Positions 16,563 through 33,301 of a stretch of 43,312 nucleotides of DNA are shown piece by piece. How positions within the stretch are numbered: position 1 is the first letter of the stretch; every line of letters begins with the position of its first letter. The notes beneath the pieces are model-generated. The model was not told the DNA's origin. It saw nothing but the letters and a program-made list of their open reading frames with translations, and made no database searches. The stretch lies in the IMG/VR virus record IMGVR_UViG_2565956616_000006, positions 1 through 43,312 of that record. One strand, written 5' to 3'. The translations under genes were made by a program, and so were the position numbers. The DNA is from a virus. Its lineage: Duplodnaviria; Heunggongvirae; Uroviricota; Caudoviricetes.

Positions 16563-16822
16563 ATATCAACTTAATTTATCGTCATCCGTGTGAGCTGGAA
16601 ATTGAATCATTGCTGGGGCGTGAAGAGCCATATCCAGACACATTCACTCCCGCAGATTGCGCGACTGAACGGCTTACCAGAGCGCGCACAGGTCTGGTTC
16701 ATGTGATGAATGAGATTGTTCCCTCGGTGGGAGGGGAACAGGCGACAGTAATCAATAGCTGGCTACAAAAAGTTACCTCCCTGATAGATATCGGTTTAAT
16801 CGATGTGGAGAGTGCGAAATGA
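16559..16822 (+). CDS. Hypothetical protein, 87 aa
   Basis: ATGA start/stop overlap with the upstream gene. Confidence 0.55.
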   Translation: MNINLIYRHPCELEIESLLGREEPYPDTFTPADCATERLTRARTGLVHVMNEIVPSVGGEQATVINSWLQKVTSLIDIGLIDVESAK

Positions 16823-17040
16823 CCAACATCCAGCTCATTGAAGCGCAATGTCGCATCGAACAGGTTCAGACTGTTTTAGGGTTCTGGCTTGAAGGGGCCA
16901 GCCCCAGCAACAGAGACAAGTTAATGATTGGCGCGGTTATGTCACTGCTTAATGGCGTACCAGAAGCTATTCAGGAAGCGGACGAATTGTTGGGCAAATA
17001 TGAGTTACAGAATCATTCAGGCGAGGCGAAACATGAATAA
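16819..17040 (+). CDS. Hypothetical protein, 73 aa
   Basis: ATGA start/stop overlap with the upstream gene. Confidence 0.55.
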   Translation: MTNIQLIEAQCRIEQVQTVLGFWLEGASPSNRDKLMIGAVMSLLNGVPEAIQEADELLGKYELQNHSGEAKHE

Positions 17041-17635
17041 TTTCTTAACTTTCCATGCAGAAGCAACGCCTGACGGCGTAAACATCATGTACCGCAGCAA
17101 CGATGGCATGACAGAACGCGTTGAGGCCATCTCATATATTGATGCCGTAAATCGTCTGGATGCCGGGGATTATGACGATAAACCAGATGAAGGTATGTCA
17201 ATACATCTCGCTATTGCCGATGGCGGCAACCAGGGATATTTCGATTACACATCACAGCATAACGTCATTATGTGGAGATGGCTGATCGCAACAGTATTCA
17301 TGCTGGAAATGAGAGAGGAAAACGGCACTGTCAGCATCATTGATGATACTGGCAATCCTTCCGAAGTGGCTGTTTATTCCAACGGCATCGTCGCCATGCC
17401 GCTGTATCCAGTAGCAGAGCGCCTCGCTATGGCAAACAACATTGAGGGCGCGATGATAGAACGTTTTGGCATCGAGTCTGGCACAGAACGCGCCATCATT
17501 TTCTACAGAGCCATGATGGATGTGGAACAAGGAGCACTGACTCCATTTGGTCGTGAAACGCTTGCTGAACTTCACAACAGCTTTATAGCTGAACTGAATG
17601 AAAACGGCATGCCAGCGGAACCAGTGACGCACTGA
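17033..17635 (+). CDS. Hypothetical protein, 200 aa (ORF-track start at 16928 trimmed)
   Basis: ATG at 17033 overlaps the previous stop (ATGAATAA). The upstream extension lies inside the preceding gene. Confidence 0.55.
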   Translation: MNNFLTFHAEATPDGVNIMYRSNDGMTERVEAISYIDAVNRLDAGDYDDKPDEGMSIHLAIADGGNQGYFDYTSQHNVIMWRWLIATVFMLEMREENGTVSIIDDTGNPSEVAVYSNGIVAMPLYPVAERLAMANNIEGAMIERFGIESGTERAIIFYRAMMDVEQGALTPFGRETLAELHNSFIAELNENGMPAEPVTH

Positions 17636-17645
17636 GGATGGAGCC

Positions 17646-17987
17646 ATGATTACTAAAAATTTCCGACTGAATGCGCTGGCAAATAAGTATGCGTCGGCAC
17701 TGTATAACCACATTACCTCCACCAGCGGCGGGGACTATTTCATGGTTGATGCGGACGGCGAGGCCGTCCGTGTGGAAATCGTCAATGGAGTAAAAGGCGT
17801 TCGCAGCCTGATCGATAGCTACACACTGGCAGCCATGAAAGTGTTCTACCCGCAGTGGGAAACCGTGGGGATCGAGCTTCTTGAACGTTGCGTCACTAAG
17901 GACGGATTGACTGACGTCGGGCGTGAGATATGGCAAAGCATGGTTAATGACATGGGCGCAACTGTAGCGGGAGGTTCTCATGCGTGA
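17646..17987 (+). CDS. Hypothetical protein, 113 aa
   Basis: SD-like GGATGGAG 4 nt upstream. Same operon. Confidence 0.55.
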   Translation: MITKNFRLNALANKYASALYNHITSTSGGDYFMVDADGEAVRVEIVNGVKGVRSLIDSYTLAAMKVFYPQWETVGIELLERCVTKDGLTDVGREIWQSMVNDMGATVAGGSHA

Positions 17988-18351
17988 AAATGCAGAAATG
18001 GCGCTTAGCTCAGCAATCGGAGAGCAGGTGGCAAAGATTGCTGGTGCTGTGTGGATTCATAACCTTCATTCTACTGGTGAAGAGAAAATGGTAATTCAGA
18101 CGCCAGAGGGACGCACCATTACTACATCTCTGAAGCCGTCAGATGTTTGTGATCTGATTTGCGCATTCATGTACCCAGCAATGAGGACTGTCCACGGCGA
18201 TAAGTGGAAACTTGCGACAACCGCTGAATTTGATATGTGGCTAAACAATGATGGCATGCTGACTGATTACGGAATAACCAAGTGGCAGATGCTGGTTAGC
18301 CATATCGCAAACGCTATAGACCACGTGGGGTACGGTGATGCGAAACATTGA
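17980..18351 (+). CDS. Hypothetical protein, 123 aa
   Basis: Overlaps the previous gene by 8 nt. Same operon. Confidence 0.55.
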   Translation: MRENAEMALSSAIGEQVAKIAGAVWIHNLHSTGEEKMVIQTPEGRTITTSLKPSDVCDLICAFMYPAMRTVHGDKWKLATTAEFDMWLNNDGMLTDYGITKWQMLVSHIANAIDHVGYGDAKH

Positions 18352-21094
18352 TCTTATCCGTCAGGTTATCAGTGCGTCTGAAAACAACTGGCCTCATGTG
18401 CTGGGCTGCCTGAACATAAATGTCCCTGACTCTCCGCGCCGTCATGCTCCCTGCCCTGCATGTGGGGGCAAAGATCGATTCCGGTTCGATGACAACGGGC
18501 GCGGTAGCTTCATCTGTAATCAGTGCGGCGCTGGTGATGGGCTGGATTTAATTAAACGCGTAAATAACTGCGACACAACAGAGGCGGCGCTTCTTGCCGC
18601 TGATGTTCTGGGTATTGATTACCGGACAACGGAAACACCAGAAGCCACCAGCCAGAAACGGGAACAACTGGAAACCGAGCGCCAGCGACGCGAACAGGAG
18701 CGCCTGAAAAGGGCAGAGAAGGACGAACAACAAAGACGGGATACGTTTTCCCGTCAGTTTGATGACATGCGCAGAAAGGCTGTAAACGGCAAATCTGATT
18801 ATCTGGTTGCGAAAGGGGTAGGTGATTTTACATTCCCCGTGTTGCCCGATGGATCTCTGTTGCTGGCGCTGGTGGATAAATCCGGCGCAGTAACAGCAGC
18901 ACAGACTATTACCTCACATGGTGAAAAAAGACTCCTGACAGGTTCAGCAAAGCGGGGGGCATATCACGCCATAAACGCACCAGAAACAACACAGAGCATC
19001 TTAATCGCAGAAGGTCTGGCAACGGCATTATCTGCCCATTTAATTCGTCCAGAGGCGCTGACAGTGGCGGCGATTGATGCCGGGAACCTGTTATATGTCG
19101 CCCAGGTACTGCGGGATAAATTTCCTTCAGCACAAATCATCATTGCTGCGGATAACGACCACAGCGAAGGAAGACAAAACACGGGGAGAATAGCAGCAGA
19201 AAAAGCAGCTTTATCTGTTTCTGGATGGGTGGCATTACCCCCGACAGATCACAAAGCAGACTGGAATGATTACCACCAAAAACACGGCATTAAATGCGCC
19301 ACAGAAGCGTTCAATAAGTCAATGTACCAACCACAGGGTAATGGCGTGAAACAGGAGCCACAGACCATTGAGGGAAGCGATTTTAAGGTTATGGATACCG
19401 ACCCACTGAAACCAAGAATAGAAAGCCGCGAGGATGGTATTTATTGGGTATCTCCGAGAGCTGACAGCCAGAGTGGAGAAATCATCAATAACGAAAGCTG
19501 GTTATGTTCTCCGTTAAGCGTTATCGGTACTGGCAGAGACGATAAAGACCAGTATCTCATTCTTCGCTGGCTGTCGTTTGGTTCTGAAACGCCGACAACC
19601 GCTGCCATTCCACTGGCTGATATTGGTGAACGTGAAGGATGGCGCACACTTAAAGCTGGTGGGGTAAATGTCACGACCAAAAGCAGCCTCAGAGCAATAC
19701 TGGCAGACTGGCTACAACGCAGTGGCTCTCGTGAATTGTGGCGTGTTGCTCATGCCACTGGCTGGCAATGCGGAGCGTACATCATGCCTGATGGGGAAAT
19801 CATCGGAACACCTGAAAATCCTGTGCTGTTCAGCGGGAGAAGCTCAGCCGCAGCCGGATATACCGTCTCAGGGAGCGCGAAAAGCTGGCGTGATAACGTG
19901 GCGCGTCTGGCCTTTGGTAACTATTCAATGATGACCGGGATCGGCGCAGCACTGGCAGCGCCATTGATTGGGCTGGTGGGCGCTGACGGGTTCGGCATTC
20001 ATTTCTATGAGCAGTCGAGCGCAGGTAAGACCACCACGGCAAACGTGGCGAGCAGCTTATACGGCAACCCTGATTTACTGCGGCTGACGTGGTACGGAAC
20101 CGCGCTGGGGCTGGCAAATGAGGCCGCCGCCCACAATGACGGACTAATGCCGCTTGATGAAGTTGGTCAGGGCGCTGATCCTGTCAGCGTTTCACAGTCT
20201 GCCTATGCGTTATTTAACGGTGTAGGGAAACTGCAAGGCGCTAAAGATGGTGGAAACCGGGATCTAAAACGCTGGCGTACAGTGGCAATCAGCACCGGAG
20301 AAATGGATTTAGAAACATTTATCGCTACTTCCGGGCGAAAAACCAAAGCCGGGCAACTGGTGCGACTGCTGAATATTCCGTTGAGTAAAGCAGTACGCTT
20401 TCACGATTACCAGAACGGAAAACAGCACGCAGACGCACTGAAAGACGCTTACCAGCATCACCACGGCGCGTCCGGGCGTGAGTGGATTAAATGGCTGGCA
20501 CACCACCAGCAACAGGCTATTAAAACCGTTCGTGATTGCGAAAGCAGATGGAGAAGCCTGATCCCATCCGATTATGGTGAGCAGGTTCACCGTGTAGCCG
20601 CGCGATTTGCCATTCTAGAGGCCGCATTGTTGTTAGGCGAGGTTGTAACAGGCTGGGATGCTCAGACATGCCGTGATGCGATACAGCACAGCTATAACGC
20701 ATGGTTGCGCGAGTTCGGCACAGGTAACAAAGAGCATCAGCAGATTATTGAACAAACGGAGGCATTTCTTAATGCCTATGGGCTTAGCCGTTTTGCACCA
20801 TTTCCATACAGCCCGGCAGATTTGCCCATCAAAGATTTAGCCGGATACCGTCAGCGTGGAGAACATGACGAAAGCCCAATGATTTTCTACACATTCCCGG
20901 CCACATTTGAAAAGGAGATCGCATGTGGTTTCAACGCAAAACAGTTTGCTGAAGTGTTGAAAAAAGCCGGGATGCTAACCCCACCAAACAGCGGTCGTGG
21001 ATACCAAAGAAAATCACCACGTATTCAGGGACGACAAATAAACGTTTATGTACTCAATTACCAGCCAGGAGATTATAACTCATCTGAAGAATGA
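18335..21094 (+). CDS. P4 alpha-type primase-helicase: Zn-ribbon, Toprim and DUF927/D5-like NTPase, ~919 aa
   Basis: CPACGGKDRFRFDD...G.FICNQCG zinc motif. Toprim-like LIAEGLATALS...IIIAADND. Walker A SSAGKTT. Followed directly by iterons. Confidence 0.85.
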   Translation: MMRNIDLIRQVISASENNWPHVLGCLNINVPDSPRRHAPCPACGGKDRFRFDDNGRGSFICNQCGAGDGLDLIKRVNNCDTTEAALLAADVLGIDYRTTETPEATSQKREQLETERQRREQERLKRAEKDEQQRRDTFSRQFDDMRRKAVNGKSDYLVAKGVGDFTFPVLPDGSLLLALVDKSGAVTAAQTITSHGEKRLLTGSAKRGAYHAINAPETTQSILIAEGLATALSAHLIRPEALTVAAIDAGNLLYVAQVLRDKFPSAQIIIAADNDHSEGRQNTGRIAAEKAALSVSGWVALPPTDHKADWNDYHQKHGIKCATEAFNKSMYQPQGNGVKQEPQTIEGSDFKVMDTDPLKPRIESREDGIYWVSPRADSQSGEIINNESWLCSPLSVIGTGRDDKDQYLILRWLSFGSETPTTAAIPLADIGEREGWRTLKAGGVNVTTKSSLRAILADWLQRSGSRELWRVAHATGWQCGAYIMPDGEIIGTPENPVLFSGRSSAAAGYTVSGSAKSWRDNVARLAFGNYSMMTGIGAALAAPLIGLVGADGFGIHFYEQSSAGKTTTANVASSLYGNPDLLRLTWYGTALGLANEAAAHNDGLMPLDEVGQGADPVSVSQSAYALFNGVGKLQGAKDGGNRDLKRWRTVAISTGEMDLETFIATSGRKTKAGQLVRLLNIPLSKAVRFHDYQNGKQHADALKDAYQHHHGASGREWIKWLAHHQQQAIKTVRDCESRWRSLIPSDYGEQVHRVAARFAILEAALLLGEVVTGWDAQTCRDAIQHSYNAWLREFGTGNKEHQQIIEQTEAFLNAYGLSRFAPFPYSPADLPIKDLAGYRQRGEHDESPMIFYTFPATFEKEIACGFNAKQFAEVLKKAGMLTPPNSGRGYQRKSPRIQGRQINVYVLNYQPGDYNSSEE

Positions 21095-21112
21095 GCTTCT
21101 TCATGTGCGTAG

Positions 21113-21230
21113 AAAAGGTGTTGGTTCAGTTGGTTCAGTTGGTTCAATTTGTAAAGTGTATTGTTTTATAAGGATTTTATTCTTTTTATTGAACCAACAC
21201 TGAACCAACAACACGGTATTTTGAACCAAC
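21113..21230. repeat. Iteron origin candidate 1: 3 tandem TTGGTTCA(G/A), a ~40-bp AT-rich spacer, then 3 inverted TGAACCAAC
   Basis: Tandem 9-mers at 21121-21147. Inverted copies at 21190, 21201 and 21222. Lies immediately 3' of the primase-helicase gene. Confidence 0.75.
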
Positions 21231-21283
21231 ACAATGTGACTGAATTGATGCGCACAACACCTGGCTGGCATCAGAGAGTGTTT

Positions 21284-21355
21284 TACGAGACTTTCGTAAA
21301 ATCCTGTGTACAAGGGCGTGACGTTTTTGAAAGTGAGCACTACGAAATTTTCGTA
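21284..21355. promoter_or_regulatory. Two TACGA-N5-TCGTA inverted-repeat sites (21284-21298, 21341-21355)
   Basis: Read directly, 57 bp apart. Operator-like; the binding protein is unknown. Confidence 0.45.
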
Positions 21356-21550
21356 GTTCAAAAAACAGCCTCTGAGAAGTTGTTATGCCTGTTCAGCAAA
21401 CCATCCGCATAGCTGATCGCGAATCAAATTACCAATGGAGCCAGAAGCAAGGGCAGAACTGAAAAGCGCCTGCCGTGAAGAGTAATGCGACACCATAAAT
21501 ATAGTTTTTAGAGTCCATAAAAAACCTGTCAAAACCTGACACACAGAACG

Positions 21551-21583
21551 ATGCCACCAGCTACTGAGCGGTGGCATTTTTTT
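21551..21583 (+). terminator. Strong rho-independent terminator ending a non-coding stretch
   Basis: ATGCCACC-N11-GGTGGCAT followed by TTTTTT. No credible ORF in the ~300 nt upstream on the + strand. Confidence 0.75.
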
Positions 21584-21678
21584 GTGCTATTTGTTTCATA
21601 TTTTGCAATTACTATGATGAATATTGCGATTTGTGAAACTATAATAACTGTTGTTTTATACAGTTCTAAGGGGGCGTT

Positions 21679-21840
21679 ATGGCTATTTCAGTAAAGCCGG
21701 TATTGATAAGTGAGAAGCAAATGGAAGCGATAAAGAAAATTCAGGAAGAGCAGCGTAAAAAATCAGGAATTGGAGTAGCGCCAACTCTGCATGAAATTGC
21801 ACGAGGGTTAATAGATAAGGCGCTGGCAGGCTGTATGTGA
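21679..21840 (+). CDS. Small ribbon-helix-helix-like protein, 53 aa (below the ORF-track cutoff)
   Basis: ATG at 21679 after AAGGGGG. Translation MAISVKPVLISEKQMEAIKKIQEEQRKKSGIGVAPTLHEIARGLIDKALAGCM has a beta-strand, helix, helix layout. The inverted repeat TTGCAAT-N13-ATTGCGA at 21603-21629 lies upstream. Confidence 0.5.
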   Translation: MAISVKPVLISEKQMEAIKKIQEEQRKKSGIGVAPTLHEIARGLIDKALAGCM

Positions 21841-21856
21841 AAATGGATGGCATCGC

Positions 21857-22318
21857 ATGGAACTAAAATTTATTGATAACCCTGTGCGATTACAGGCCTT
21901 TCTTAACGAGCCAGGCAATACCGAAAATATTGTTGAGCCGGGGCACACGTACTACATCAAGCCTGATGCGGTATATCTCGGCATCTACGAAGGATTGGTG
22001 CTGGCTGGCGTTCATGAAGTGCGTAACTTCTGGCATAGCATTGTTGAATGCCATGCGGTGTACGACCCCGGATTCCGTGGTGAATATGCACTGCAAGGGC
22101 ATCGATTATTCTGCAAATGGCTTCTCGAAAACTCACCATTCCTTAACAGCATTACCATGGTTCCTGACACCACCAAATACGGACGGGCAATTATCCGTTT
22201 GCTTGGCGCTACCCGTGTTGGTCACCTTGATGATGCTTATATCAGATGTGGTAAACCCGTCGGCGTAACGCTTTATCAGTTAACTCGGCAACAATATAAG
22301 GAATTCAGCGAATGTTAA
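21857..22318 (+). CDS. gp14-like protein, second copy (satellite-borne), 153 aa
   Basis: Same size and position as 2699-3154. Shared motifs: CHA.Y.P..RG, G.....(L/I)G..RVG. Confidence 0.65.
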   Translation: MELKFIDNPVRLQAFLNEPGNTENIVEPGHTYYIKPDAVYLGIYEGLVLAGVHEVRNFWHSIVECHAVYDPGFRGEYALQGHRLFCKWLLENSPFLNSITMVPDTTKYGRAIIRLLGATRVGHLDDAYIRCGKPVGVTLYQLTRQQYKEFSEC

Positions 22319-22989
22319 TTACCCACATAGCTCATAAACATCTCAATCGTGCCGTATACGAAAAAGGCGGTGATGGTGGTGCCTCTAAAGCTCAGGCGAA
22401 GGCCCAGCAGCAGGCAATTGATTTGCAGCGCGAGCAGTGGAATACGGTGATGAATAATCTCAAGCCGTATGCAGAAGTCGGATTGCCTGCTTTACAACAA
22501 CTACAAGGACTGATGACTCTGGAAGGGCAGAATAAAGCCGCGAATGATTTCTTTGGTTCTGGTTTATATAAAACACAGGCAGATCAGGCCCGTTATCAGA
22601 ACCTTGTCTCAGCAGAAGCTACCGGGGGGCTTGGCTCAACAGCTACCAGTAACCAGTTATCTTCCATTGCGCCCATGCTTTATAACAATTGGCTTAGTGG
22701 GCAAATGCAAAATTATGGAAACCTGCTAAATGTCGGGATGAATGCGGCATCAGGGCAGGCAACAGCAGGGCAAAACTACGCCAATAATACCGGGCAACTC
22801 TTGCAGGGGCTTGGCGCTATTCGTGCAGGTCAGGCGCAGCAGCCATCCAGTCTTGCGCGTGGTATTGGTGGGGCGGCATCAGGCGCTTTAGCGGGTGCGC
22901 AACTTGGTTCCGTTGTTCCGGGTATAGGTAATGTCGCCGGGGCTATTGGTGGTGGGCTTATTGGTCTTGTTGGGGGGCTTGGATTCTAA
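22312..22989 (+). CDS. gp7-like ejection protein, second copy, 225 aa
   Basis: Aligns by eye with 3157-3852 through KGG.GG, W/FNT.MNNLKP, QARYQ.L..AEATGGLGSTATSNQL..IAP.L...WLSGQM.NY.NL and the Gly-rich hydrophobic tail. Confidence 0.85.
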   Translation: MLITHIAHKHLNRAVYEKGGDGGASKAQAKAQQQAIDLQREQWNTVMNNLKPYAEVGLPALQQLQGLMTLEGQNKAANDFFGSGLYKTQADQARYQNLVSAEATGGLGSTATSNQLSSIAPMLYNNWLSGQMQNYGNLLNVGMNAASGQATAGQNYANNTGQLLQGLGAIRAGQAQQPSSLARGIGGAASGALAGAQLGSVVPGIGNVAGAIGGGLIGLVGGLGF

Positions 22990-24410
22990 TGGCGACATGG
23001 CAACTTGGCGGGCTGCCTAGCATGGCACCGCAAAATGATAATGCTCCTCGTTCTTCCGTTCCTCAGCCTGTGCAGTATCAGCAGCAGCCAAACGTAGGTT
23101 TAATGGCGCTACAGGGGCTAAGAGGCGTTGCTGAGATTAATCAGCAGGCACGTCAACAACAGCGTAAAGCAGAGTTTCAGAAAGCATATGCCGGGGCTTT
23201 TGAGTCTGGAGACAGAAACAAAATGCGCAGTCTTATTTCTGAGTATCCAGAAGAATTTGAAAGCGTTCAGAAAGGGATGGGCTTTATTGATGACGACCAG
23301 AGAAATTCTATTGGTCATCTTGCGACTAGTGCTCAAATCGCATCTTCGCTCGGAACTGGGGCATTTGGAAAATTCATAGCAGATAACGAAGATGAAATGC
23401 GTCGCTTGGGAATTTCTCCTGAGTCTGTTGCCGAAATGCATGTTAATGATCCACAGGGATTCCAGCGGCTTGCTGGTAGTATGGCACTGTTTTCTCTCGG
23501 TCATGAGAAGTATTTCGATATCAAAGATCAAATGGAAGGTCGGGATATTGAGCGTGGCAAGTTGGCAGAAACAATCCGCAGCAATCAGGCTGGCGAAGCA
23601 CTTCAGGCGAGAGGGCAGGATATTAGCCGAGCAAATGCGTTAACGTCAGCATATGCACCAACAGCAGCAATGCAGAATTACAATCAGTACGCTCAAATGT
23701 TAAAGGAGGATCCAGAGGGGGCGGCGGCATTTGCGGCAGCGGCTGGAATTAATACAAACGCCAAAAAATTAATGAGTGTTAGAGAAAACGATGATGGCAC
23801 TGTCACAAAATACTACACAGACGGAAGTGAAGAGCAGGGAAAACTAAACCAGCCAATATCTGGAGATGGGTTTCGTCCAATAGCTTTGCCAACAGCCCAA
23901 AAGATCATGGAAAAGTCGCCAGAAGGGGCTAAAAAAGCTGCTGGATTTGCATACAGGGTTAGGGATGCTCTTGATTCAATAGATACACTGAAAGACCAGC
24001 TTAGCCCACAGCGAGTGGCGATCATTAATAATGCTTTGGGTAATGGGACGCTGGCTAACTTAACGCTCAGCCCAACAGAGCAGCAATACGTTGTTAATGC
24101 TAATGACGCAATAATGGCAATACTCCGTCAGGAAACAGGGGCAGCTATCGTACCTGCTGAAATGTCAAAATATTATCAAATGTATTTCCCTCAGCCTGGC
24201 GACTCCACAAAAACCATTGATACCAAGCGCCGGAAGATGGAAAACCAGTTCAATTCGCTGAAAGCTGCTTCTGGTCGAGCTTATGATGCTTTGCGGGTTA
24301 TTTCAGCAGTTGACAGAGGAACTTCTTCTTCGTCGCAGACATTGCCGCAATCTGAGCAGGTATCACAGCCAGCAGCCAGCAGTAACTTTTCTTCACTATG
24401 GGGTGATTAA
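22989..24410 (+). CDS. gp20-like ejection protein, second copy, 473 aa
   Basis: MATWQ.G start, 473 vs 471 aa. Shared [20 protein letters not shown] block, which is 52/55 nt identical to the prophage copy. Confidence 0.85.
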   Translation: MATWQLGGLPSMAPQNDNAPRSSVPQPVQYQQQPNVGLMALQGLRGVAEINQQARQQQRKAEFQKAYAGAFESGDRNKMRSLISEYPEEFESVQKGMGFIDDDQRNSIGHLATSAQIASSLGTGAFGKFIADNEDEMRRLGISPESVAEMHVNDPQGFQRLAGSMALFSLGHEKYFDIKDQMEGRDIERGKLAETIRSNQAGEALQARGQDISRANALTSAYAPTAAMQNYNQYAQMLKEDPEGAAAFAAAAGINTNAKKLMSVRENDDGTVTKYYTDGSEEQGKLNQPISGDGFRPIALPTAQKIMEKSPEGAKKAAGFAYRVRDALDSIDTLKDQLSPQRVAIINNALGNGTLANLTLSPTEQQYVVNANDAIMAILRQETGAAIVPAEMSKYYQMYFPQPGDSTKTIDTKRRKMENQFNSLKAASGRAYDALRVISAVDRGTSSSSQTLPQSEQVSQPAASSNFSSLWGD

Positions 24411-26515
24411 TGGCTAAAGCATGGAAAGATGTTATCGCCTCTCCACAGTATCAGGCGTTAGCACCAGAACAAAAAGCGCAGGCTCAGGAGCAATACTTCA
24501 ATGAAGTCGTTGCCCCGCAAGCCGGAGAAAGTGTAGAGCAGGCTAAGCAGGCTTTTTATGCTGCCTATCCACTACCATCAACGAATGAAATAGACCGAGC
24601 CCAATCAGCAACTCAAAATATTCAACATACATCATCTGATAATTCTCTTGCGTCAGGGTATGCAAAGTTAGCTACTCAGCAAAGAGAGGGGCTTGAGCGT
24701 TCAGCAGAACAGGGAGCCAGCCTTGGGGCTGCGATGCGCGATGCTATAACAGGCGAAAGCCGAATGACTCCAGAGATGGAGAGACTGCAAAATGTCGACC
24801 TTGCCCCAGAGTTAACCTCACTCAGCATGGATGCTCTAAAAGCTCGATGGTCTCAACTTTTCGGCTCTGACGCATCTCAGGAAAAGATTCTTCAGAGCAT
24901 GGGAGCGAAATTAAGGCAGGATGAGAAGGGTAACACTATCGTTTCCCTGCCATCCGGTGATTATGCTCTGAACAAGCCGGGTTTATCGCCGCAAGACGTG
25001 GCATCGTTTCTGGCTAATGCGCTGGCGTTTACACCAGCGGGCAGGGCCGGAACGGTGCTGGGGGCCATAGGGAAATCAGCAGCTACAGATTTAGCACTAC
25101 AGGGAGCCACCAGCCTCGCTGGTGGAGAAGATATTGATCCGTTACAAACGGTAATTTCTGCTGGCATTGGTGGTATTGGTAAGGGGCTGGAAAATACAGC
25201 GAGTGCGGTTTCGAGGGCTGTTCGTGGTGATATGTCGCCTGAAGCAAAGGCTGCTGTCGACTTTGCATCGGAAAGAAATCTGCCGTTAATGACCAGTGAC
25301 ATGCTGAAAGATAAAACCTTTATGCAGAGTCAGGCTCAGACATTAGGCGAAAGAGTTCCTTTTTTTGGAACCGGTAAGAATCGGCTGAATCAACAACAAG
25401 CACGAGAAAATTTAGTCAGAACATTTAGCGATGGTCTGGGTGGCATTTCTGATAAACAGCTTTATGAATCTGCGACTAAAGGGCAACAAAAATTCATTGA
25501 GGCAGCAGGAAAGCGATATAACCGCATAATTGACGCTATGGGGGATACCCCTGTCGATCTCTCAAACACGGTAAAAGCTATCGACAATCAGATTGCTGTG
25601 TTAAGCCGCCCGGGTAAATCTCAGGATAGAGCCGCGGTAAAAGTCTTGCAGCAATTTAAAGACGATATCACCAGCGGACCAAATGACCTGCGTCTGGCGA
25701 GGGAAAACAGAACCGATCTTCGAAAGCGGTTTATGGCGTCATCTGACACTGTTGATAAAGATACGCTCCAGAAAGCCAGCGATATTATCTACAAGGCATA
25801 TACGGCGGATATGAAAAAAGCCGTAGCCAAAAATCTTGGAGCAGACGAAGCCATTAATATGGCAAGGGTTGATCGCTCATGGTCTAAATTCAATGACATG
25901 ATGGGAAGAACGCGCGTTCAAAAGGCAATAGCCAGCGGCAAGGCCACGCCTGAGGATGTAACAAAACTCGTTTTTAGCCAAAGCCCATCAGAACGTTCTC
26001 AGCTTTACAGGCTTCTGGATGACAATGGTAGGCAAAACGCACGAGCAGCCATAGTTCAGAATGCTGTAGATAAGGCGACTGATCCGTCTGGAAATATCAG
26101 TGTTGAGAAGTTTATTAATGCGTTACACCGGAACAGGAAGCAATCAGCAACTTTCTTTAAAGGCGTACATGGAAAGGAACTGGACGGCGTTATTAAATAC
26201 CTCAACGATACAAGACACGCGGCAAAAGCGAACGTTCAAAACTTAAATGGTCAGCAGCTTTATGGATTGTTAGTTGGTGGTGGCATCATAAACGCAGCAG
26301 TATTAGCGGGGATGCTAAAAACGGCTGCGTTTGTTGTTCCTGCTGCTGGTGCCGTAGGCGGAGCCGCGAAGGCATACGAAAGCCCTGTTATACGAAATGC
26401 CTTGTTACGTTTGGCAAATACGCCAAAAGGTAGCACAGCATATGACAGAGCGATCAGTACGGTCACACAATCGCTCACCAGAGTCGCACAGGCATCACAA
26501 AAAGAAGCTCAATAA
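24410..26515 (+). CDS. gp16-like ejection protein, second copy, 701 aa
   Basis: Position and TAATG coupling. Shared motifs with 5275-7116: MTSD(V/M), KD...AVAKNLGA(S/D).[17 protein letters not shown]. Confidence 0.8.
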   Translation: MAKAWKDVIASPQYQALAPEQKAQAQEQYFNEVVAPQAGESVEQAKQAFYAAYPLPSTNEIDRAQSATQNIQHTSSDNSLASGYAKLATQQREGLERSAEQGASLGAAMRDAITGESRMTPEMERLQNVDLAPELTSLSMDALKARWSQLFGSDASQEKILQSMGAKLRQDEKGNTIVSLPSGDYALNKPGLSPQDVASFLANALAFTPAGRAGTVLGAIGKSAATDLALQGATSLAGGEDIDPLQTVISAGIGGIGKGLENTASAVSRAVRGDMSPEAKAAVDFASERNLPLMTSDMLKDKTFMQSQAQTLGERVPFFGTGKNRLNQQQARENLVRTFSDGLGGISDKQLYESATKGQQKFIEAAGKRYNRIIDAMGDTPVDLSNTVKAIDNQIAVLSRPGKSQDRAAVKVLQQFKDDITSGPNDLRLARENRTDLRKRFMASSDTVDKDTLQKASDIIYKAYTADMKKAVAKNLGADEAINMARVDRSWSKFNDMMGRTRVQKAIASGKATPEDVTKLVFSQSPSERSQLYRLLDDNGRQNARAAIVQNAVDKATDPSGNISVEKFINALHRNRKQSATFFKGVHGKELDGVIKYLNDTRHAAKANVQNLNGQQLYGLLVGGGIINAAVLAGMLKTAAFVVPAAGAVGGAAKAYESPVIRNALLRLANTPKGSTAYDRAISTVTQSLTRVAQASQKEAQ

Positions 26516-26533
26516 CTGGTAGCCATGGATGGC

Positions 26534-27148
26534 TTAGATATCTCTGCTGTCTCCATTAGGAAATAAAAGATAATATGGATTTGCCTTTCTTGCTCTCCTT
26601 GCTTCACCTGGATACCTGTTAGTCAGTAGTTTGCATAATGAGCAGAGAACAACACTCAAGAAAATTCCGAATGAGAAGATCAATATCTCACCAAAAATCA
26701 ATGGCGATATTAAATTTTCAGGATTTAATGATAAGTCAATGTTAAAAACATATTGAGCAATACCAGTAAGTATCAATAATATAATCCCTATGGAATACAT
26801 TGCTGTTTCCCAAACATCAGACAGTCTATTTTTGAATTGTTCGCTGGAGTAGTAGTTTGTTATAAAGTCAGAAAAATCACTCTCATATGCATCATCTTTA
26901 GGTGATGTTAGAAATCCTCTGTCTCTCCATACCTTCTCCCAATTAGTCGATTCTTTTTTTAAGGAAAAATAAATATGTATTGCCAAAAGGATAGCCAAAA
27001 TTGGTGTTAGCTCTAAAAAATAGAATGTTATGGAATAAATAATACTGCCATGTTCAAACTCATCTGGGACTATCATGTATGCACAAAAATAAATTGAAAA
27101 GTACACCATGCAGATAGTTAGCAATTCTTTAGTATCTTTTCTGCTCAC
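26534..27148 (-). CDS. AT-rich polytopic inner-membrane protein, 204 aa, unknown function (sits where sieA follows gene 16 in P22)
   Basis: At least 4 hydrophobic segments with an acidic ~60-aa central loop. Markedly lower GC than its neighbours. Convergent with the E cassette. Confidence 0.65.
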   Translation of the reverse strand: MSRKDTKELLTICMVYFSIYFCAYMIVPDEFEHGSIIYSITFYFLELTPILAILLAIHIYFSLKKESTNWEKVWRDRGFLTSPKDDAYESDFSDFITNYYSSEQFKNRLSDVWETAMYSIGIILLILTGIAQYVFNIDLSLNPENLISPLIFGEILIFSFGIFLSVVLCSLCKLLTNRYPGEARRARKANPYYLLFPNGDSRDI

Positions 27149-27262
27149 ACCAACCCCCTTTAGCGTTGTTTAGAATGGCAATCATCATATATCCAAGACA
27201 TGGCATTTGGTACATAGCTTGGGTCGGGATTTCAAATCCGATCCCCGTTGATGGGGCCGTTA

Positions 27263-27644
27263 CAGTACGCGCATATCCGCTTTATGTGAAACAGGAAGAT
27301 TTTTCTGATATCACTGCCACAGCAAAACACCAATTTCGTGACCAGTACGCGCGCGAGGGGTATCAGTTGCAAAAATTTTGCAACTACGTCCGACCAGTAC
27401 GCACACGATGGCGGGGGATACCATGAAACTGTTCTCTACACGAGACAGAGTGGTGGTGATGTGTTGATTATCGGCGTATATGCGCACAGGACGCGCTATG
27501 ACGATGTTTTATGCGGGTACACCAATCACATGTATCTGATGTGATAAATCGTGTTACATGACATCTCATGTTGTGCTGGTGGTTATCACGACGTTCTGAA
27601 TCTGGCCTTTGCCTGATATTTTGCGACAAGTACGCGCGCGTAGC
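27263..27644 (+). repeat. Four same-orientation copies of a (C/A)AGTACGC(G/A)C motif plus the 19-bp palindrome GTTGCAAAAATTTTGCAAC
   Basis: Copies at about 27263, 27343, 27395 and 27628. The palindrome at 27365-27383 lies between copies 2 and 3. Copies 2 and 3 fall in different reading frames. Confidence 0.6.
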
Positions 27645-28017
27645 ATCGAAATTATCGGATGGCGTATGCTGCTGGCAATATGAAGACCGATAGTATTAAC
27701 CGAAAAGCGATTAAGGAGTGCCAACTTTTCAGTAGAGAAACTAGCCAGCATAGGAAAATGTAGAAATTACCCAATTAATAGGTAAAAGTTATTGACACAG
27801 CCTGTAGTGGATAACGATATGAATAAAAACCACATATAGTGGTTTTTCGTGAGTGATGATAGTATCTATGTTAGTTTCCTAAGTAACTGTGCATTGACAT
27901 GTGGATAACTTCGGATAGAGTTACAGGCAACCGAGCCCGATCCTCTGTTTCTCCGCCGCCGATTTCAGGCATGTGAGTTTCACGGTCGGGCCTTTTATTA
28001 TCTTTTGTTTCGCCACT

Positions 28018-28995
28018 ATGATTGCCGCAAAGCCTCATAAGGACTATCACGAATTGCTAGGATTGCTACTTGAACGTGGCATGATTATCAATGATCGAAA
28101 TCGTGCGATACGTAAGCTGTCGCAGGTTGGATATTATCGATTGTCAGGTTTTTGGTACCCATCAAGAATTATTGCGACAACAGATAAAGGTCTTTCGTAC
28201 AGAACAGACCGATTTCTTGCTGGTACCAGTTTCGAGAAGACGTACGATCTATATCTTTTTGACAAAAAACTGCGTCTTTTGATGATTGATGCTATCGAAA
28301 GAATAGAGATTCATGTTCGTTCAGTCATCGCGCATGAGGTTGGTCGCAATGATCCACTTGCCTACATGTCATCAAAATACATTAATCCAAAATTCTCATC
28401 TGCCTTCGAGCATTGGGTGTATAAGCAAAAAGTAAAATTAGACGAAAGCAGAGATGACTGTATTGAATGGCATCGAAGCCAAGGCAAGGAGATTCCATTT
28501 TGGGTGGCGGTGGAGACCTGGGATTTTGGTCAGATGTCTAAATATTATGCGATGCTTAATGGTCATATGCAGGGGAAAATTATACGTCGTTTTGGCATTG
28601 ATAATAAGCAGACATTTGCAAAATGGTTGAAGTGCCTTAATCTCATAAGGAATCGTTGCGCTCACCATTCCAGAATATGGAATAGAAAGCATCCCCGAGT
28701 TCCAGTACCGGATAATGAATACTTTGACGGACTTAATCTCCATCCAGAGAGTTGCGAGAGGATTTTTAGCGCGATCTGTATTATCTGGTACTTAGTTAAA
28801 CGACTTGGTCCGGGATCAACATGGCTTCGGCAAATTGCAGACCTTATTGACTCTAAACCAAATGTTCCCGGATGTGGATATGATTCAATGGGTTTACCTG
28901 CTAAAGGATTCCCACGAGAGAGATTCTCTCAGGACTTAGGTTTTGTTATCGCCGACAACGACCCTGTAGCTGAAGGGCGGAAAGGGAGCGATTGA
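28018..28995 (+). CDS. Abi_2 family (AbiD/AbiF-like) abortive-infection protein, ~325 aa (ORF-track GTG start at 27973)
   Basis: Family pattern: KP....E.L.LL..RGM.I.D...A...L...GYYRLSG(F/Y)W, LY.FD..LR.L....IE.IE...R, CLN.IRNRCAHH.R.WN. Confidence 0.8.
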   Translation: MIAAKPHKDYHELLGLLLERGMIINDRNRAIRKLSQVGYYRLSGFWYPSRIIATTDKGLSYRTDRFLAGTSFEKTYDLYLFDKKLRLLMIDAIERIEIHVRSVIAHEVGRNDPLAYMSSKYINPKFSSAFEHWVYKQKVKLDESRDDCIEWHRSQGKEIPFWVAVETWDFGQMSKYYAMLNGHMQGKIIRRFGIDNKQTFAKWLKCLNLIRNRCAHHSRIWNRKHPRVPVPDNEYFDGLNLHPESCERIFSAICIIWYLVKRLGPGSTWLRQIADLIDSKPNVPGCGYDSMGLPAKGFPRERFSQDLGFVIADNDPVAEGRKGSD

Positions 28996-29024
28996 GCGAT
29001 AAATATCATTTATACACTGATCAA

Positions 29025-29465
29025 TTACTGAAGCAGCGTATTGATTCTTTTAATATTGTTACCCTGACGCTTCCACGCGCTGTAAATGTCTTTATCCCAC
29101 GCTTTACCAGCTTTTGTTTGGTAGCCTGCTTCATTGAGCCGTTCCGCTATCACACGCCCATTATCAAATCCCTGTCGGATGGTATCGGCAATGATCTTTA
29201 TAACTGCCGTTTCGTTATATGGCTTTGGTGGGATGTTCGGCTTTCCGGCAATAAGCGACGCAGCGGCTTTTTCCATGCGCTCCACCAGCCCAAGCATTCG
29301 TGAATCAATAGACTTTTCCGGCTGTCCCAGCTTCATGCGAATCGCATCAACAAGCCAGGAGGTTTTATCCCCTCCAGAAGCGAGAACAGACCGATTAAAC
29401 TCATCCTGCAATTCAGATGGGATGCGGAACGCGACCAGATTAGATTTGCTCATTGCAAAGACCAT
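29025..29465 (-). CDS. Arc/RHH-type DNA-binding regulator with a C-terminal recombinase-like helical domain, 146 aa
   Basis: N-terminus SKSNLVAFRIPSELQDEFNR....G..K..WLVDAIR.KL is RHH-like. C-terminus I..RLNEAGY.TKAGK.W resembles the motif seen in recombinase accessory domains. The inverted repeats ACAGT-N5-ACTGT and ATAAC-N3-GTTAT at 29485-29512 lie in its upstream region. Confidence 0.6.
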   Translation of the reverse strand: MVFAMSKSNLVAFRIPSELQDEFNRSVLASGGDKTSWLVDAIRMKLGQPEKSIDSRMLGLVERMEKAAASLIAGKPNIPPKPYNETAVIKIIADTIRQGFDNGRVIAERLNEAGYQTKAGKAWDKDIYSAWKRQGNNIKRINTLLQ

Positions 29466-29568
29466 ATCAGTGAGTAATATCCATACAGTATACCACTGTA
29501 TAACACTGTTATACGCTCAAATATCAGCCAGAAAATAACGGACCAATCACAAAGCTATCGCTGTGTTG

Positions 29569-29695
29569 TTGGTTCAGAGCTGGGCTGTGTTGGTTCAAAA
29601 TGAGTTGATGTTGGTTCAATATTTCAGAAAAAACACAATAAAAACAACGATCTTTACAAATTGAACCAACTGAACCAACTGAACCAACACCTTTT
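29569..29695. repeat. Iteron origin candidate 2 (crr-like), an inverted copy of the 21113-21230 cluster
   Basis: TTGGTTCA(G/A) at 29569, 29590 and 29611. AT-rich spacer. Three tandem TGAACCAAC at 29662-29688. Positions 29652-29695 are the perfect reverse complement of 21113-21156. Confidence 0.75.
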
Positions 29696-29724
29696 TGCTT
29701 ATCTATATAATCTGAGAGGCAGAA

Positions 29725-30012
29725 ATGATAAGGGACAGGAAAGCTGAAGAACTGGAGTCAAAAGGGCTATACCGGAGAGCTGCCGCACGATGGGCAGAAG
29801 TCATGATGCTGGCAGATGGCGATAAAGAACGTGAACATGCAGCAAACAGACGCTCTGAATGTATCCGTAAGGCGGCACGCCCACCAGCAACTACAGACAG
29901 ATTCGGAGATTTAAGACAGGCAGTTAAGCGGACTCATTCGGCTCTTGGTATGGATGAGGAAGCGAGAGGGTATTTCAGGCGTTATCGCGATAAAGATTGC
30001 CAGAGACAGTAA
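29725..30012 (+). CDS. PerC-family-like transcriptional activator, 95 aa
   Basis: KAE.LE.KGLYRRAA.RW.EVM pattern, as remembered for PerC-type proteins of enterobacterial islands. Confidence 0.55.
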   Translation: MIRDRKAEELESKGLYRRAAARWAEVMMLADGDKEREHAANRRSECIRKAARPPATTDRFGDLRQAVKRTHSALGMDEEARGYFRRYRDKDCQRQ

Positions 30013-30272
30013 TGCTCTCTCTGTTTTGGCAAATTACCCCTCACTTTGAAGGGATCGGAGCTATAAAAATGGTGTTATCCGGCTTCCTGCATTGCAGGTT
30101 TTCGAAAGAATCAATGGGTTAGGTTATCGTGCAAATTTGCACTCTGCCAGCCAACGCAATTTCTCGTTGGCGGAAATATCAGGTATTTACTGAACGAACG
30201 GTCTACCCGCCTGTTCAACTACCAGTTGTACATGGCTGCTTTATGTGCAAATGGTGGTGAGAGAAAATTGTT

Positions 30273-30293
30273 TGGGGGTACTTTTGGGGGTAT
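30273..30293 (+). repeat. Arm-type repeat pair TGGGGGTACTTTTGGGGGTAT at the right end of element 2
   Basis: 20/21 identical to 11964-11984, same orientation. Confidence 0.7.
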
Positions 30294-30354
30294 CTCCAAA
30301 GATGTAACTGGAAAATGTCTTTATATATCAATGTATTTTTATTGTTTGTTTTGT

Positions 30355-30372
30355 TCCTATTATCGGCACCAT
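30355..30372 (+). repeat. att core copy 2 (junction of element 2 and element 3)
   Basis: TCCTATTATCGGCACCAT, identical to the cores at 11834 and 42759. Confidence 0.9.
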
Positions 30373-30975
30373 CAAGAAAATCAATAACTTAGCTTAACTT
30401 CTCTAAGAAATTGTATCTTCTGTTATCACTTACAAACGCCTATACGTTGTTATGGGCTTTGGTAGTGTAACACGTATGGGCGAGTAGTTCCCAGGCTCAA
30501 CCTCGTAACAAGTTCCTTTGAAGCTGGAAGACGTGCCACCGTCTCTAAACCTTCTACCAAAACTCTTAGCAAGATGTTCCACACCTGGCGCGGTGTCCAA
30601 TGATGCCACACGTCGTGAGACGTTGCAGAGGATAAACAGGCTAAATGATGGGAAGAGTTTTAAGTGCAATAGTGGATTAAAGCCCACCTCTTCAAAACCT
30701 AACTTGATCGGGAAAGAATCAAGCTCTAGCACGGTTTCGTCCACCGGAGTACAACGGGTGCCTGATAAGAGAAGAACTGCTAAGACTTCATAGCTTTTGT
30801 GAAAAAGCCCTTTTAGTGGATACGCCTACGGCGCTTATTTTTTGGTATAACCATCAAAGGCGCTTTATGGCTCCTATTGTCTTGAAAATGTATCTTTACT
30901 TGTATTGTGTTTTATGCGTAGTCTCCCTGTGTAGTATGTAACTTGTTAATTTTCATATGAATACAGAGGCACACG

Positions 30976-31134
30976 ATGAAAAACATTGCAGCTATCAAAC
31001 GTAATAACCGCAAGATTCACGCTCGTAAGTTCCTGTCTACGCCAGAAGGAAAAGCCTGGCTAGAGCGTAAACAGAGAGAGAACGAAGAAAGAAAACTCCT
31101 TAGTGAGTTGAAATGGCTTAGAGAGGATTTCTGA
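30976..31134 (+). CDS. Possible small basic protein, 52 aa (below the ORF-track cutoff)
   Basis: ATG at 30976 with GAGG 7 nt upstream. MKNIAAIKRNNRKIHARKFLSTPEGKAWLERKQRENEERKLLSELKWLREDF. Imperfect hairpin and T-run downstream. Confidence 0.35.
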   Translation: MKNIAAIKRNNRKIHARKFLSTPEGKAWLERKQRENEERKLLSELKWLREDF

Positions 31135-31299
31135 AAATCTCCAGAACGCAACAGGGCGCATTCTAACGCTGTTTTCATTGCTCGGTATAGGGATGTATAG
31201 GTGATGTGTGTTTAATGCGTCTGTGAGCTTGTTTTATGTCTTATTTTGCATTTTCATAATGCAGGAGAGAACACGGAAAGCCTTAAAATTAATTATTGG

Positions 31300-31464
31300 G
31301 GTATTTAAGGCTATTTTTAGGGTATTTAAGGGTATTAAACTTGATTTAATTGATTAAAATATAAACAGATAATTATGTATCTTATTGATTTATAAGGTTA
31401 TTTTTAAATAAAGGTAAATAAAAAATAAATAGCCATAAATAGCTATAAATACATCTAAATACCT
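31300..31464. repeat. Iteron/AT-rich block: GGTATTTAAGG x2 (+1 degenerate, +1 inverted) and four tandem 10-bp ATAAATA(G/C)C(C/T)-type repeats
   Basis: GGTATTTAAGG at 31300 and 31321. GGTATTAAAC at 31331. Inverted CTAAATACC at 31455. 10-bp tandem units across 31425-31464. Confidence 0.6.
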
Positions 31465-31478
31465 ATATCCCTTCCCTT

Positions 31479-31886
31479 ATGGCTAGATTGCGAGAGGTGC
31501 TTAACGCGATTTTTAGCGCCCCCCGATCTGGAAAATCCAGAATCCCCAAATATCAGCAAGGAATTTTCTTGCGTAATCAACATCGTTTTTACCTATTAAA
31601 TCATTACACAGAAAGCCTTTCTGTAATGTCTCTCACTAAACTTTCACTAAACACGAGAATGATCGGTTTTATGTCGGATCAGATGCTAGAAACAGCACCA
31701 CGTCTCACAAGGGCTGTAAGCGATGAAACCAGTGTTTATGCGGGTGCAGGTCAAAATATAGGCCAAAGTCCATTTAACATAATAAACGTAATATGCACTA
31801 AGGAACACATAGAACGCCTTGAGTTGATGTATAAGGGGAAAAGTGGTGGATTTTTTTACGTAGGAGCACGAGAGGGCTTCTATTGA
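31479..31886 (+). CDS. Doubtful ORF, 135 aa
   Basis: Open frame only. No SD, no recognisable family, and it starts inside the repeat block. Confidence 0.2.
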   Translation: MARLREVLNAIFSAPRSGKSRIPKYQQGIFLRNQHRFYLLNHYTESLSVMSLTKLSLNTRMIGFMSDQMLETAPRLTRAVSDETSVYAGAGQNIGQSPFNIINVICTKEHIERLELMYKGKSGGFFYVGAREGFY

Positions 31887-33275: not shown

Positions 33276-33301
33276 AACCAAATAGAATAGGAGGTTAATT
33301 A

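Follow-up and report, generated by a model that had tools for sequence, protein, structure and literature searches.

A P22-type ejection-protein cassette on an EcCIMP1-like satellite island at thrW

Two ejection-protein cassettes and the island at thrW

The stretch of DNA analysed here, all 43,312 nucleotides (nt) of the IMG/VR virus record IMGVR_UViG_2565956616_000006 (hereafter the window), holds two copies of the gp14-gp7-gp20-gp16 cassette that encodes the ejection (E) proteins of P22-like phages, one in a P22-like prophage and the other on an island a few kb away. In P22, gp14 is tied to virion assembly. Gp7, gp20 and gp16 are virion proteins that form the conduit for the DNA, and particles without E proteins fail at DNA delivery (PMC10883804). 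An earlier note on this DNA had claimed that both cassettes are complete and collinear, that they are homologous yet strongly diverged, that the genes of the island copy are translationally coupled, and that this copy belongs to a satellite. The open reading frame (ORF) map places the genes of the two cassettes, the first spanning 2699-7116, as follows:

2699-3154, plus strand, prophage gp14 (151 aa)
3157-3852, plus strand, prophage gp7 (231 aa)
3863-5278, plus strand, prophage gp20 (471 aa)
5275-7116, plus strand, prophage gp16 (613 aa)
21857-22318, plus strand, island gp14 (153 aa)
22312-22989, plus strand, island gp7 (225 aa)
22989-24410, plus strand, island gp20 (473 aa)
24410-26515, plus strand, island gp16 (701 aa)

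Both cassettes are uninterrupted, and the start and stop codons of the island-cassette genes overlap, in line with the coupling proposed for them. All eight products match the P22 families in profile searches over near full length: gp14 of both copies belongs to DUF2824/phrog_651 (E 1e-53 to 1e-78), gp7 to PF25688 P22_gp7/phrog_598 (E 2e-72 for the island and 5e-133 for the prophage), gp20 to PF16928 Inj_translocase/phrog_917 (E 1e-111 and 2e-205), and gp16 to phrog_770 (E 2e-161 over residues 19-700 for the island, and 3e-279). The island gp16 allele found no match in the Pfam search; it is 67% identical to gp16 of phage N7. The island thus carries the four families at full length and in P22 order. 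Between the two copies, gp14 is 23% and gp7 54% identical, gp20 is 41% identical over the N-terminal 234 aa only, and gp16 is 30% identical over the C-terminal two-thirds only; the shared blocks quoted in the earlier note are visible in the alignments. The presence of two full cassettes in one window is real, and chance is no explanation for it.

The second cassette lies between two exact 18-bp direct repeats, in an element whose remaining features, apart from the control region and the stretch just after gp16 that are described below, are these:

11834-11851, left attachment (att) core TCCTATTATCGGCACCAT, exact 18-bp direct repeat at the tRNA-Thr thrW 3′ end, matching locus L001 of the comparison set (L numbers throughout)
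12016-13230, plus strand, integrase, a P4-type tyrosine recombinase (Arm-DNA-bind_3, Phage_int_M and Phage_integrase domains)
13659-13862, plus strand, AlpA (PF05930, E 7e-20)
14306-15139, plus strand, AntA/AntB-type antirepressor (PF08346, phrog_5817)
between the antirepressor and the primase region, DUF4222 gene
15308-16375, plus strand, Ash/Icd-like ORF (PF10554; an icd-like coding sequence is annotated in relatives)
15689-15766, isrK-like RNA within the Ash/Icd ORF, directly upstream of the C4 RNA (Rfam isrK, 67.1 bits)
15829-15916, C4 antisense RNA within the Ash/Icd ORF (Rfam C4, 79.5 bits)
between the Ash/Icd ORF and the primase, small genes
18335-21094, plus strand, primase-helicase (Zn_Ribbon_Prim, Toprim_3, DUF927; phrog_1139, E 2e-178)
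21118-21235, iterons GGTTCAGTTGGTTCA.../TTGAACCAAC... (TGAACCAAC-type), read directly, presumed origin
21560-21585, plus strand, terminator-like hairpin that closes the replication operon
27973-28995, plus strand, AbiD/Abi_2 defence gene, variable cargo (PADLOC AbiD, E 8e-58; PF07751)
between AbiD and PerC, gene of 146 aa
29725-30012, plus strand, PerC-family regulator (PF06069, E 3e-33)
30355-30372, right att core TCCTATTATCGGCACCAT, exact 18-bp direct repeat with 11834-11851

The integrase, AlpA, C4 RNA, primase and iterons that the earlier note had seen around the second cassette are all matched by domain, Rfam or direct reading of the sequence. Neither Pfam and PHROG searches of the island ORFs nor the RefSeq annotation of an identical copy gave any capsid, head, portal, terminase, tail, lysis, Sid, Psu or Delta gene, as that note had said, and the same Pfam and PHROG searches gave nothing resembling TerS, Rpp, Ppi or HNH. 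Like a phage-inducible chromosomal island (PICI), which measures ~10-20 kb, the element has an integrase at one end, att repeats 18.5 kb apart, AlpA near the integrase and a primase/replication module; it departs from that type in having no packaging or capsid-redirection module (TerS, Rpp, Ppi, Cpm) and in carrying phage structural genes, namely the gp7, gp20 and gp16 homologues. With P4-like elements it shares the P4-type integrase, AlpA, the alpha-type primase and a CI/C4-type RNA, and no Pfam or PHROG match to Sid, Psu, Delta or Epsilon was found in it.

An island of ~18.5-18.6 kb at 95-100% identity is present in 86 of 5,426 complete E. coli genomes, and its match begins exactly at the att repeat. 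In strain MB49 the island is 100% identical and is the sole insert between thrW and a yagP remnant, with no adjoining prophage. In the window, the left att core doubles as the right end of the P22-like prophage. We therefore read 11834-30372, from its sequence, as an EcCIMP1-like PICI at thrW in tandem with a P22-like prophage.

In E. coli MP1, the tRNA-Thr that lies between proA and yagU harbours EcCIMP1, a PICI of 19,963 bp (Pick, Stadel and Raivio, ISME J 2025, PMC11773190). Its published att core is TCCTATTATC; excision and circularisation are seen only in the presence of the P22-like (Lederbergvirus) prophage Kapi1 or on its induction, and the island depends on its own alpA and int, with AlpA as the master activator (PMC11773190). 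Kapi1 transduces it at a low rate, ~5e3 per ml, and neither Kapi1 titres nor the infection of non-lysogens are altered by it, while in lysogens it adds superinfection immunity against Kapi1 and has no recognisable defence system (PMC11773190). It was scored as Type C #var01, and the authors likened EcCIMP1_017-019 to proteins of DNA transfer and of the DUF2824 family and proposed a role in packaging (PMC11773190).

From 11834 to 23149, a stretch that takes in the integrase and ends at about codon 53 of gp20, the window is 97.9% identical to the MP1 locus at the nucleotide level over 11,334 bp; the backbone homology and the thrW att core place the island among EcCIMP1-like elements. AlpA and a small 53-aa protein each have one RefSeq accession common to MP1 and MB49, whose island is 100% identical to that of the window. 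Window gp14 is 99% identical to that of EcCIMP1 and 83% to that of Kapi1, and gp7 is 100% and 57% identical, respectively. The EcCIMP1-type sequence stops at 23149 and a second type, that of the island at L019, starts at 23124, which puts the junction at 23124-23149 and makes gp20 an in-frame chimera; from the junction to 27649 the window matches, at 96.1%, the L019 type, which is limited to the small gene, gp20 and gp16 plus the reverse gene also seen here. Because the window is of this second type from about codon 53 of gp20, its gp20 resembles that of EcCIMP1 in the N-terminal 188 aa only (48%), and its gp16 finds no BLASTP match in EcCIMP1 or Kapi1 gp16. The EcCIMP1 proteins are themselves only 26% (gp20) and 24% (gp16) identical to those of Kapi1. 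The junction indicates that the window island is a recombinant with a swapped gp20/gp16 pair.

The suggestion in the earlier note that this is a satellite lineage parasitising P22-like podoviruses is right as to the helper, mobilisation having been published for EcCIMP1, which is 98-100% identical to the window island in backbone, small gene, gp14 and gp7. It was wrong in treating the lineage as undescribed: given the 97.9% identity, the lineage is not new. The presence of 'DNA transfer/DUF2824' genes was already noted in the EcCIMP1 paper, and the element in the window is a new recombinant of that kind.

The conserved module and its contents in related islands

The island cassette is preceded by a control region of its own:

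21595-21645, plus strand, palindromic operator with −10 box, TTTCA-N6-GCAAT-N13-ATTGC-N6-TGAAAC-TATAAT, called from cross-genus conservation
21679-21840, plus strand, island-specific gene of 53 aa, putative module regulator, called from the contexts of its homologues

The operator and −10 sequence is kept from Escherichia to Serratia and Klebsiella, and of 72 fetched loci, 36 have the exact operator pattern ahead of the small gene. A consensus scan of the sequence before the module yields no sigma-70 promoter. The operator region has no properly spaced −35 box, and the promoter call rests on the cross-genus conservation of the TATAAT box and the palindrome. An exact-pattern search of Kapi1 and P22, made as a test for a helper-encoded regulator, did not find the palindrome. 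Homologues of the small gene occur in Escherichia, Citrobacter, Serratia and Klebsiella and lie downstream of an island primase wherever their context was examined; the protein has an invariant VKPVL...GVAP.HEIARGL and a ratio of nonsynonymous to synonymous divergence (dN/dS) of 0.13. An AlphaFold model of the monomer has an extended-helix-helix pattern (pLDDT 78), and searches of Pfam, NCBIfam, PDB (profile) and Foldseek gave no match to the 53-aa protein. The earlier note had described a small ribbon-helix-helix gene and an upstream terminator; the gene and the hairpin are there, and the fold finds no backing in the databases searched. Its view that the cassette is independently regulated agrees with the conserved operator/promoter and small gene ahead of the cassette, which support an independently promoted module.

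Related loci were found by exact-protein look-ups of small-gene homologues and by an IMG/VR scan with the small gene; a profile scan of genome contigs with a gp20 alignment gave only two loci, its patterns being too narrow. The IMG/VR scan returned 48 loci, many of them on contigs of 17-23 kb. An island-type primase lies upstream in all but a few loci at contig ends, and many also have AlpA or an integrase. A screen for P22-type TerL, portal, coat, gp4, gp10 and gp26 genes, confined to genes of this type and to a distance of 10 kb, was negative for all 48. The arrangement of integrase, alpA, primase and E cassette free of P22 structural genes, which the earlier note had proposed to look for in other genomes, recurs in several genera, and the P22-type structural genes that would have marked the island as a prophage remnant do not adjoin these 48 relatives. 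In 45 of the 48 loci the slot behind the small gene holds virion proteins annotated by PHROGs as ejection, internal virion, tape-measure or hub proteins. The contents of the slot are:

P22 gp14-7-20-16: 9 loci
P22 gp20-16: 5 loci
three large virion proteins as in Ab31-type podoviruses (phrog_992/1044, 1145/3003, 684): 9 loci, one of them with an additional 'internal virion protein'
only the first two of the three Ab31-type large virion proteins: 1 locus
605-aa virion transglycosylase protein, as in Yersinia vB_YenM and Klebsiella RothC phages: 5 loci
tape-measure-like transglycosylase protein and hub: 7 loci
hub only: 8 loci
full ES18-type tape measure: 2 loci
nothing recognised: 2 loci, one of them without downstream DNA

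P22 E proteins are known to leave the virion and to open the DNA path, and we infer the same for the other slot proteins. In several of the 48 loci a TerS-like gene is also present, further downstream in the slot. Among individual variants, the 605-aa protein of the Klebsiella form (L009-L011, Klebsiella michiganensis; L040-L048) is 67-77% identical to vB_YenM and RothC/Chronis proteins and is followed by a protein with a TerS-like N-terminus; the full ES18-type tape measure of L070 (10498-13638) is 57% identical to ES18 gp21; and L043, L045, L046 and L060 have an Ab31-type trio (570-925 aa) or a tape-measure-like protein with a baseplate hub in the slot.

Where the slot holds P22-type genes, gp20 and gp16 are the conserved core, always replaced as a unit in the island comparisons. 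Islands between yicC and dinD, which have another integrase, another att site and a DUF5906 primase, have gp20 and gp16 after the small gene, then a reverse gene, and lack gp14 and gp7; the same is true of other islands at thrW. A two-gene form with an SLT-bearing gp16 occurs in Serratia, and the four-gene form in Citrobacter-type islands and Leclercia. The module ORFs are intact in most copies, with pairwise dN/dS of 0.04-0.30 at synonymous divergence (dS) of up to 2.4. The recurrence of the same control cassette on different integrases, att sites and primases, and in several genera, marks the module as a durable trait of these islands and not as debris.

Between the window island and that of L003, dS is 0.03 for the primase, 0.21 for gp16 and 0.35 for gp20; since the values for gp16 and gp20 far exceed that of the primase, the module appears to turn over by recombination faster than the backbone. 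Island gp16 types each have a different nearest phage: N7 (67%), Sf101 (62%) and CUS-3/epsilon34 (53%). In a complete P22-like prophage at argW (L015, 15269-17282, E. coli APEC 16-1068), the segment from the C-terminal part of gp20 through gp16 is ~90% identical to the window at the nucleotide level. The diversity of these phage-nearest types and the argW match argue that islands and P22-like phages share one allele pool, and the block formed by the C-terminal part of gp20, gp16 and the moron that follows appears to behave as a cassette that can be swapped, both from island to island and with P22-like phages. The gp16 of the L015 prophage is annotated as frameshifted.

Downstream of gp16 the island continues with a reverse gene and a non-coding block:

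26534-27148, minus strand, SieA homologue of 204 aa with an N-terminal extension, in the position and orientation of P22 sieA
27145-27705, island-specific non-coding block, right border of the swappable cassette, 96-98% identical across different E alleles
27340-27355, 27392-27407 and 27625-27640, three GACMAGTACGCRC repeats within the non-coding block

The homology to SieA rests on a direct BLASTP comparison with P22 SieA (29% over 108 aa, E 8e-8) and on an exact RYPGEA motif; phrog_7745 matches at E 4e-4, and a tblastn search of the protein against phages gave nothing. The protein has a motif of the FxRYPxEAxxFNK type known from SieA (PMC10883804), lies after gene 16, contains hydrophobic segments, and has an N-terminal extension that resembles SieA types B and C; exclusion activity is predicted. 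A sieA gene on a PICI is a small new fact, since sieA has been reported only in P22-like prophages (PMC10883804). Other islands have different small genes in the slot after gp16. In islands of E. coli, Leclercia and the Citrobacter type, the GACMAGTACGCRC sequence recurs downstream of the module; it was not found in Kapi1, the P22 region or one P22-like prophage. The block that contains it could serve for binding, as a pac site or as a second site of replication.

Some further features of the island and of the DNA around it may be recorded here. The isrK-like and C4 RNAs point to a P1/P4-type immunity region, and because the isrK match lies inside it, the ORF of the 'ash family' may be over-called across this RNA-based region; in relatives an ash pseudogene and an icd-like gene take the place of the single ash/icd ORF. 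A 22-nt repeat, AGTTTTYGGAGTCCATAAAAAA, occurs at 15627-15648 and 21503-21524, with a weaker copy at 21346-21367; the copies precede the isrK/C4 region and the pre-module terminator, GAGTCCATAAAAA recurs in Citrobacter-type islands, and the repeat may be a target or signal of C4-type immunity. In relatives the position of AbiD is taken by RnlAB, SLFN/AlbA_2 or other genes. To the left of the island, the window opens inside the late region of the P22-like prophage with gp4, gp10 and, as the needle, gp26 (80-2699); the canonical cassette comes next, followed by:

7141-7530, minus strand, prophage moron, 3′ of prophage gp16
after the moron, Mnt and Arc
8588-8654, sar RNA
after the sar RNA, Ant
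9635-11440, tailspike

By inspection only, this moron and the gene after gp16 in the L003 island, from another strain (17389-17787, minus strand), have a common signal-like N-terminus and a C-terminal FVG.VK.KC, which suggests a post-gene-16 moron slot common to phages and satellites. To the right of the island, 30373-43312 is a third element of low GC content (35-45%). A Dit-like tail protein (40587-41255) and an integrase (41337-42701, minus strand) are encoded there, beside several large ORFs (343 aa, 613 aa) that matched no family; the element may be another tandem island at thrW.

Possible roles of the ejection-protein module

By analogy with EcCIMP1, a P22-like podovirus would induce the island via AlpA, and the island would replicate from its own primase and iterons and ride in helper particles. 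The cassette and the 53-aa gene would be transcribed from their own operator-controlled promoter, and island gp7, gp20 and gp16 (and gp14, if it is an assembly factor) would enter helper procapsids. At the next infection the island E proteins would be ejected to form the trans-envelope conduit, with satellite-bearing particles using a matched gp20/gp16 pair set by the satellite and not by the helper. The most plausible payoff would be entry into cells closed to the helper conduit, for instance by SieA-type exclusion in P22-like lysogens, which would be the best future hosts for the satellite.

We give an even chance to the possibility that the cassette proteins are loaded into helper particles in this way, as the satellite's own DNA-entry conduit. 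P22 virions can take up highly divergent foreign E sets and function with them; a match is needed between gp16 and gp20, mismatched pairs being non-functional, while gp7 is interchangeable; and SieA acts on gp20 and gp16, the pair that sets SieA sensitivity (PMC10883804). Loading would explain why gp20 and gp16 form the conserved core, why they are swapped as a unit and why the satellite pair is unlike the helper pair, and it fits the retention of an SLT cell-wall-cutting domain in some gp16 alleles and the virion proteins that fill the slot in 45 of 48 related loci. The idea of SieA evasion has circumstantial support, in that the conserved core is the very pair that sets SieA sensitivity and the satellite pair differs from that of the helper.

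Several points weigh against loading and its proposed payoff. Kapi1 titres are unaltered by EcCIMP1 and transduction reaches only ~5e3 per ml (PMC11773190), which argues against massive incorporation. That a mismatched pair enters every virion in strength is therefore unlikely, except where expression is low, where mixed sets are tolerated or where Kapi1 serves poorly as helper. A Kapi1-like prophage is present in only 2 of 21 EcCIMP1 strains (PMC11773190). Decayed copies exist, gp16 being truncated in L022 and a large deletion present in L024, and the low dN/dS could stem from selection during residence in phages if modules are often re-acquired. The logic is also not simple, since an island sieA would exclude incoming P22-like phages, and SieA-escape residues are not placeable on the island alleles, alignments at 22-30% identity being unreliable. 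Poisoning of helper virions, another purpose raised in the earlier note, is disfavoured by the unchanged Kapi1 titres in the presence of EcCIMP1 and by the low rate of transfer (PMC11773190).

The E homologues and the post-gp16 gene might instead act in the carrier cell, excluding incoming or induced P22-like phages or interfering with them as decoys or dominant-negative conduit subunits. EcCIMP1 does confer superinfection immunity against Kapi1 on lysogens without a recognisable defence system (PMC11773190), mismatched gp16/gp20 pairs are non-functional (PMC10883804), and the module adjoins a SieA homologue here, with AbiD/RnlAB defence cargo in relatives. However, induced Kapi1 titres and the infection of non-lysogens are unaffected by EcCIMP1 (PMC11773190), the module keeps full-length virion proteins, gp14 and SLT domains, which a decoy would not need, and whole tape-measure and hub proteins fill the slot in relatives; we consider a role in the carrier cell unlikely. 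The right end of a P22 late operon might also have been captured repeatedly by recombination, in shared cells and here at a shared att site, as largely neutral cargo that persists for a time. The mosaic junctions, the E alleles ~90% identical in nucleotide sequence to a complete prophage, the dS of 0.21-0.35 in the E module far above that of 0.03 in the backbone, the decay of some copies and the low transduction rate of EcCIMP1 (PMC11773190) are what such hitch-hiking would leave. It does not sit well with intact ORFs at low dN/dS, with a dedicated conserved promoter and small gene before the module in several genera, or with the 45 of 48 loci that hold delivery- or tail-tip-type proteins and the absence from all 48 of P22-type head, portal or terminase genes, random capture being less selective than this; we regard neutral carriage as improbable.

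That the proteins redirect helper packaging to satellite DNA, as the authors of EcCIMP1 proposed, accords with the usual place of packaging genes in PICIs, downstream of the primase (PMC11773190), and with the TerS-like gene further downstream in the slot of some relatives. P22 particles without E proteins are nevertheless known to package DNA normally, and the proteins in question are full-length gp14, gp7, gp20 and gp16 homologues in an island with no likeness to TerS, Rpp, Ppi or HNH. What E-less particles fail at is DNA delivery (PMC10883804), and we think a packaging function very unlikely. A further candidate is that another P22-like prophage decayed and its remains became joined to a P4-like island at thrW; both types of element do use thrW, and the block 14-7-20-16-sieA is in P22 gene order. 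Yet the island stands alone at thrW and between yicC and dinD, the same architecture recurs in several genera, P22-type flanking head or tail genes are present within 10 kb in none of the 48 relatives, and EcCIMP1 excises precisely and is transduced (PMC11773190). This candidate was rejected, and we attach almost no probability to it.

Loading into helper particles thus remains the reading that we prefer for the window island. It is possible, though doubtful, that it extends further, and that EcCIMP1-like PICIs form a clade in which a conserved control cassette (a palindromic promoter and a protein of ~55 aa) drives helper-specific delivery proteins, be they P22-type gp20/gp16 with or without gp14/gp7, large virion proteins of Ab31 type, a tape measure of ES18 type, or transglycosylase and hub proteins; these would re-arm stolen particles and open cells, such as helper lysogens with SieA-type exclusion, that are closed to the conduit of the helper itself.

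Comparison with known systems

Described satellites alter capsid size, packaging specificity or tail use. A literature search for satellites with ejection, injection or tape-measure proteins returned no functional report, and only the EcCIMP1 paper mentions such genes. Recognition of a complete P22 ejection cassette with sieA on a satellite, of gp20 and gp16 as a conserved, swappable core, and of a conserved control cassette driving delivery or tail-tip virion proteins across a PICI clade was likewise not found in the literature searched. If the proposed role is true, the supply of a DNA-entry channel by satellites would be a new point of conflict between helper and satellite, apart from capsid remodelling, packaging redirection and capsid formation, and would link satellites to SieA-type superinfection exclusion at the level of entry. 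It could also help to explain the high variability of gp20 and gp16 among P22 virion genes, with islands as an additional allele reservoir and exchange partner. The EcCIMP1/Kapi1 system, in which the function of the genes was left open and the superinfection immunity is unexplained, makes a direct test possible, and the small gene with its promoter is a usable marker for islands that current satellite finders score as incomplete PICIs.

With EcCIMP1, the window island has in common the thrW site, the att core, the small gene, gp14, gp7 and PerC at the right end; it differs in that the SieA homologue and AbiD take the place of a 232-aa gene and alpA_1 of EcCIMP1, and the genes were not identified in the EcCIMP1 paper as a P22 ejection cassette. 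The P22-like phages (P22, Sf6, HK620, Kapi1, N7) have the same four families in the same order, with stop/start overlaps and a reverse moron slot that holds sieA or alternatives. Whereas the phage copy lies in a Q-dependent late operon, the island cassette lies behind a primase with its own promoter and small gene, has no gp26 upstream and no immI or tailspike downstream, and is reduced to gp20 and gp16 in many islands.

Among satellites, P4 shares the P4-type integrase, AlpA, an alpha-like primase with iterons and a C4/CI-type immunity RNA, but the island lacks Sid, Psu, Delta and Epsilon, and the helper of the island type is a podovirus where that of P4 is P2. EcCICFT073 and EcCIEDL933 have the same int-alpA-primase backbone, a PerC-like gene, defence cargo at the right end and a helper-induced AlpA circuit; they redirect packaging (Rpp, TerS-type) on cos/pac siphoviruses, whereas the window island has no such gene and its clade carries delivery- or tail-tip-type virion proteins instead. 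Capsid-forming PICIs (cfPICIs), finally, are likewise satellites that encode virion components of their own, but they make whole capsids and steal tails, whereas the island encodes only proteins of the ejected or delivery kind.

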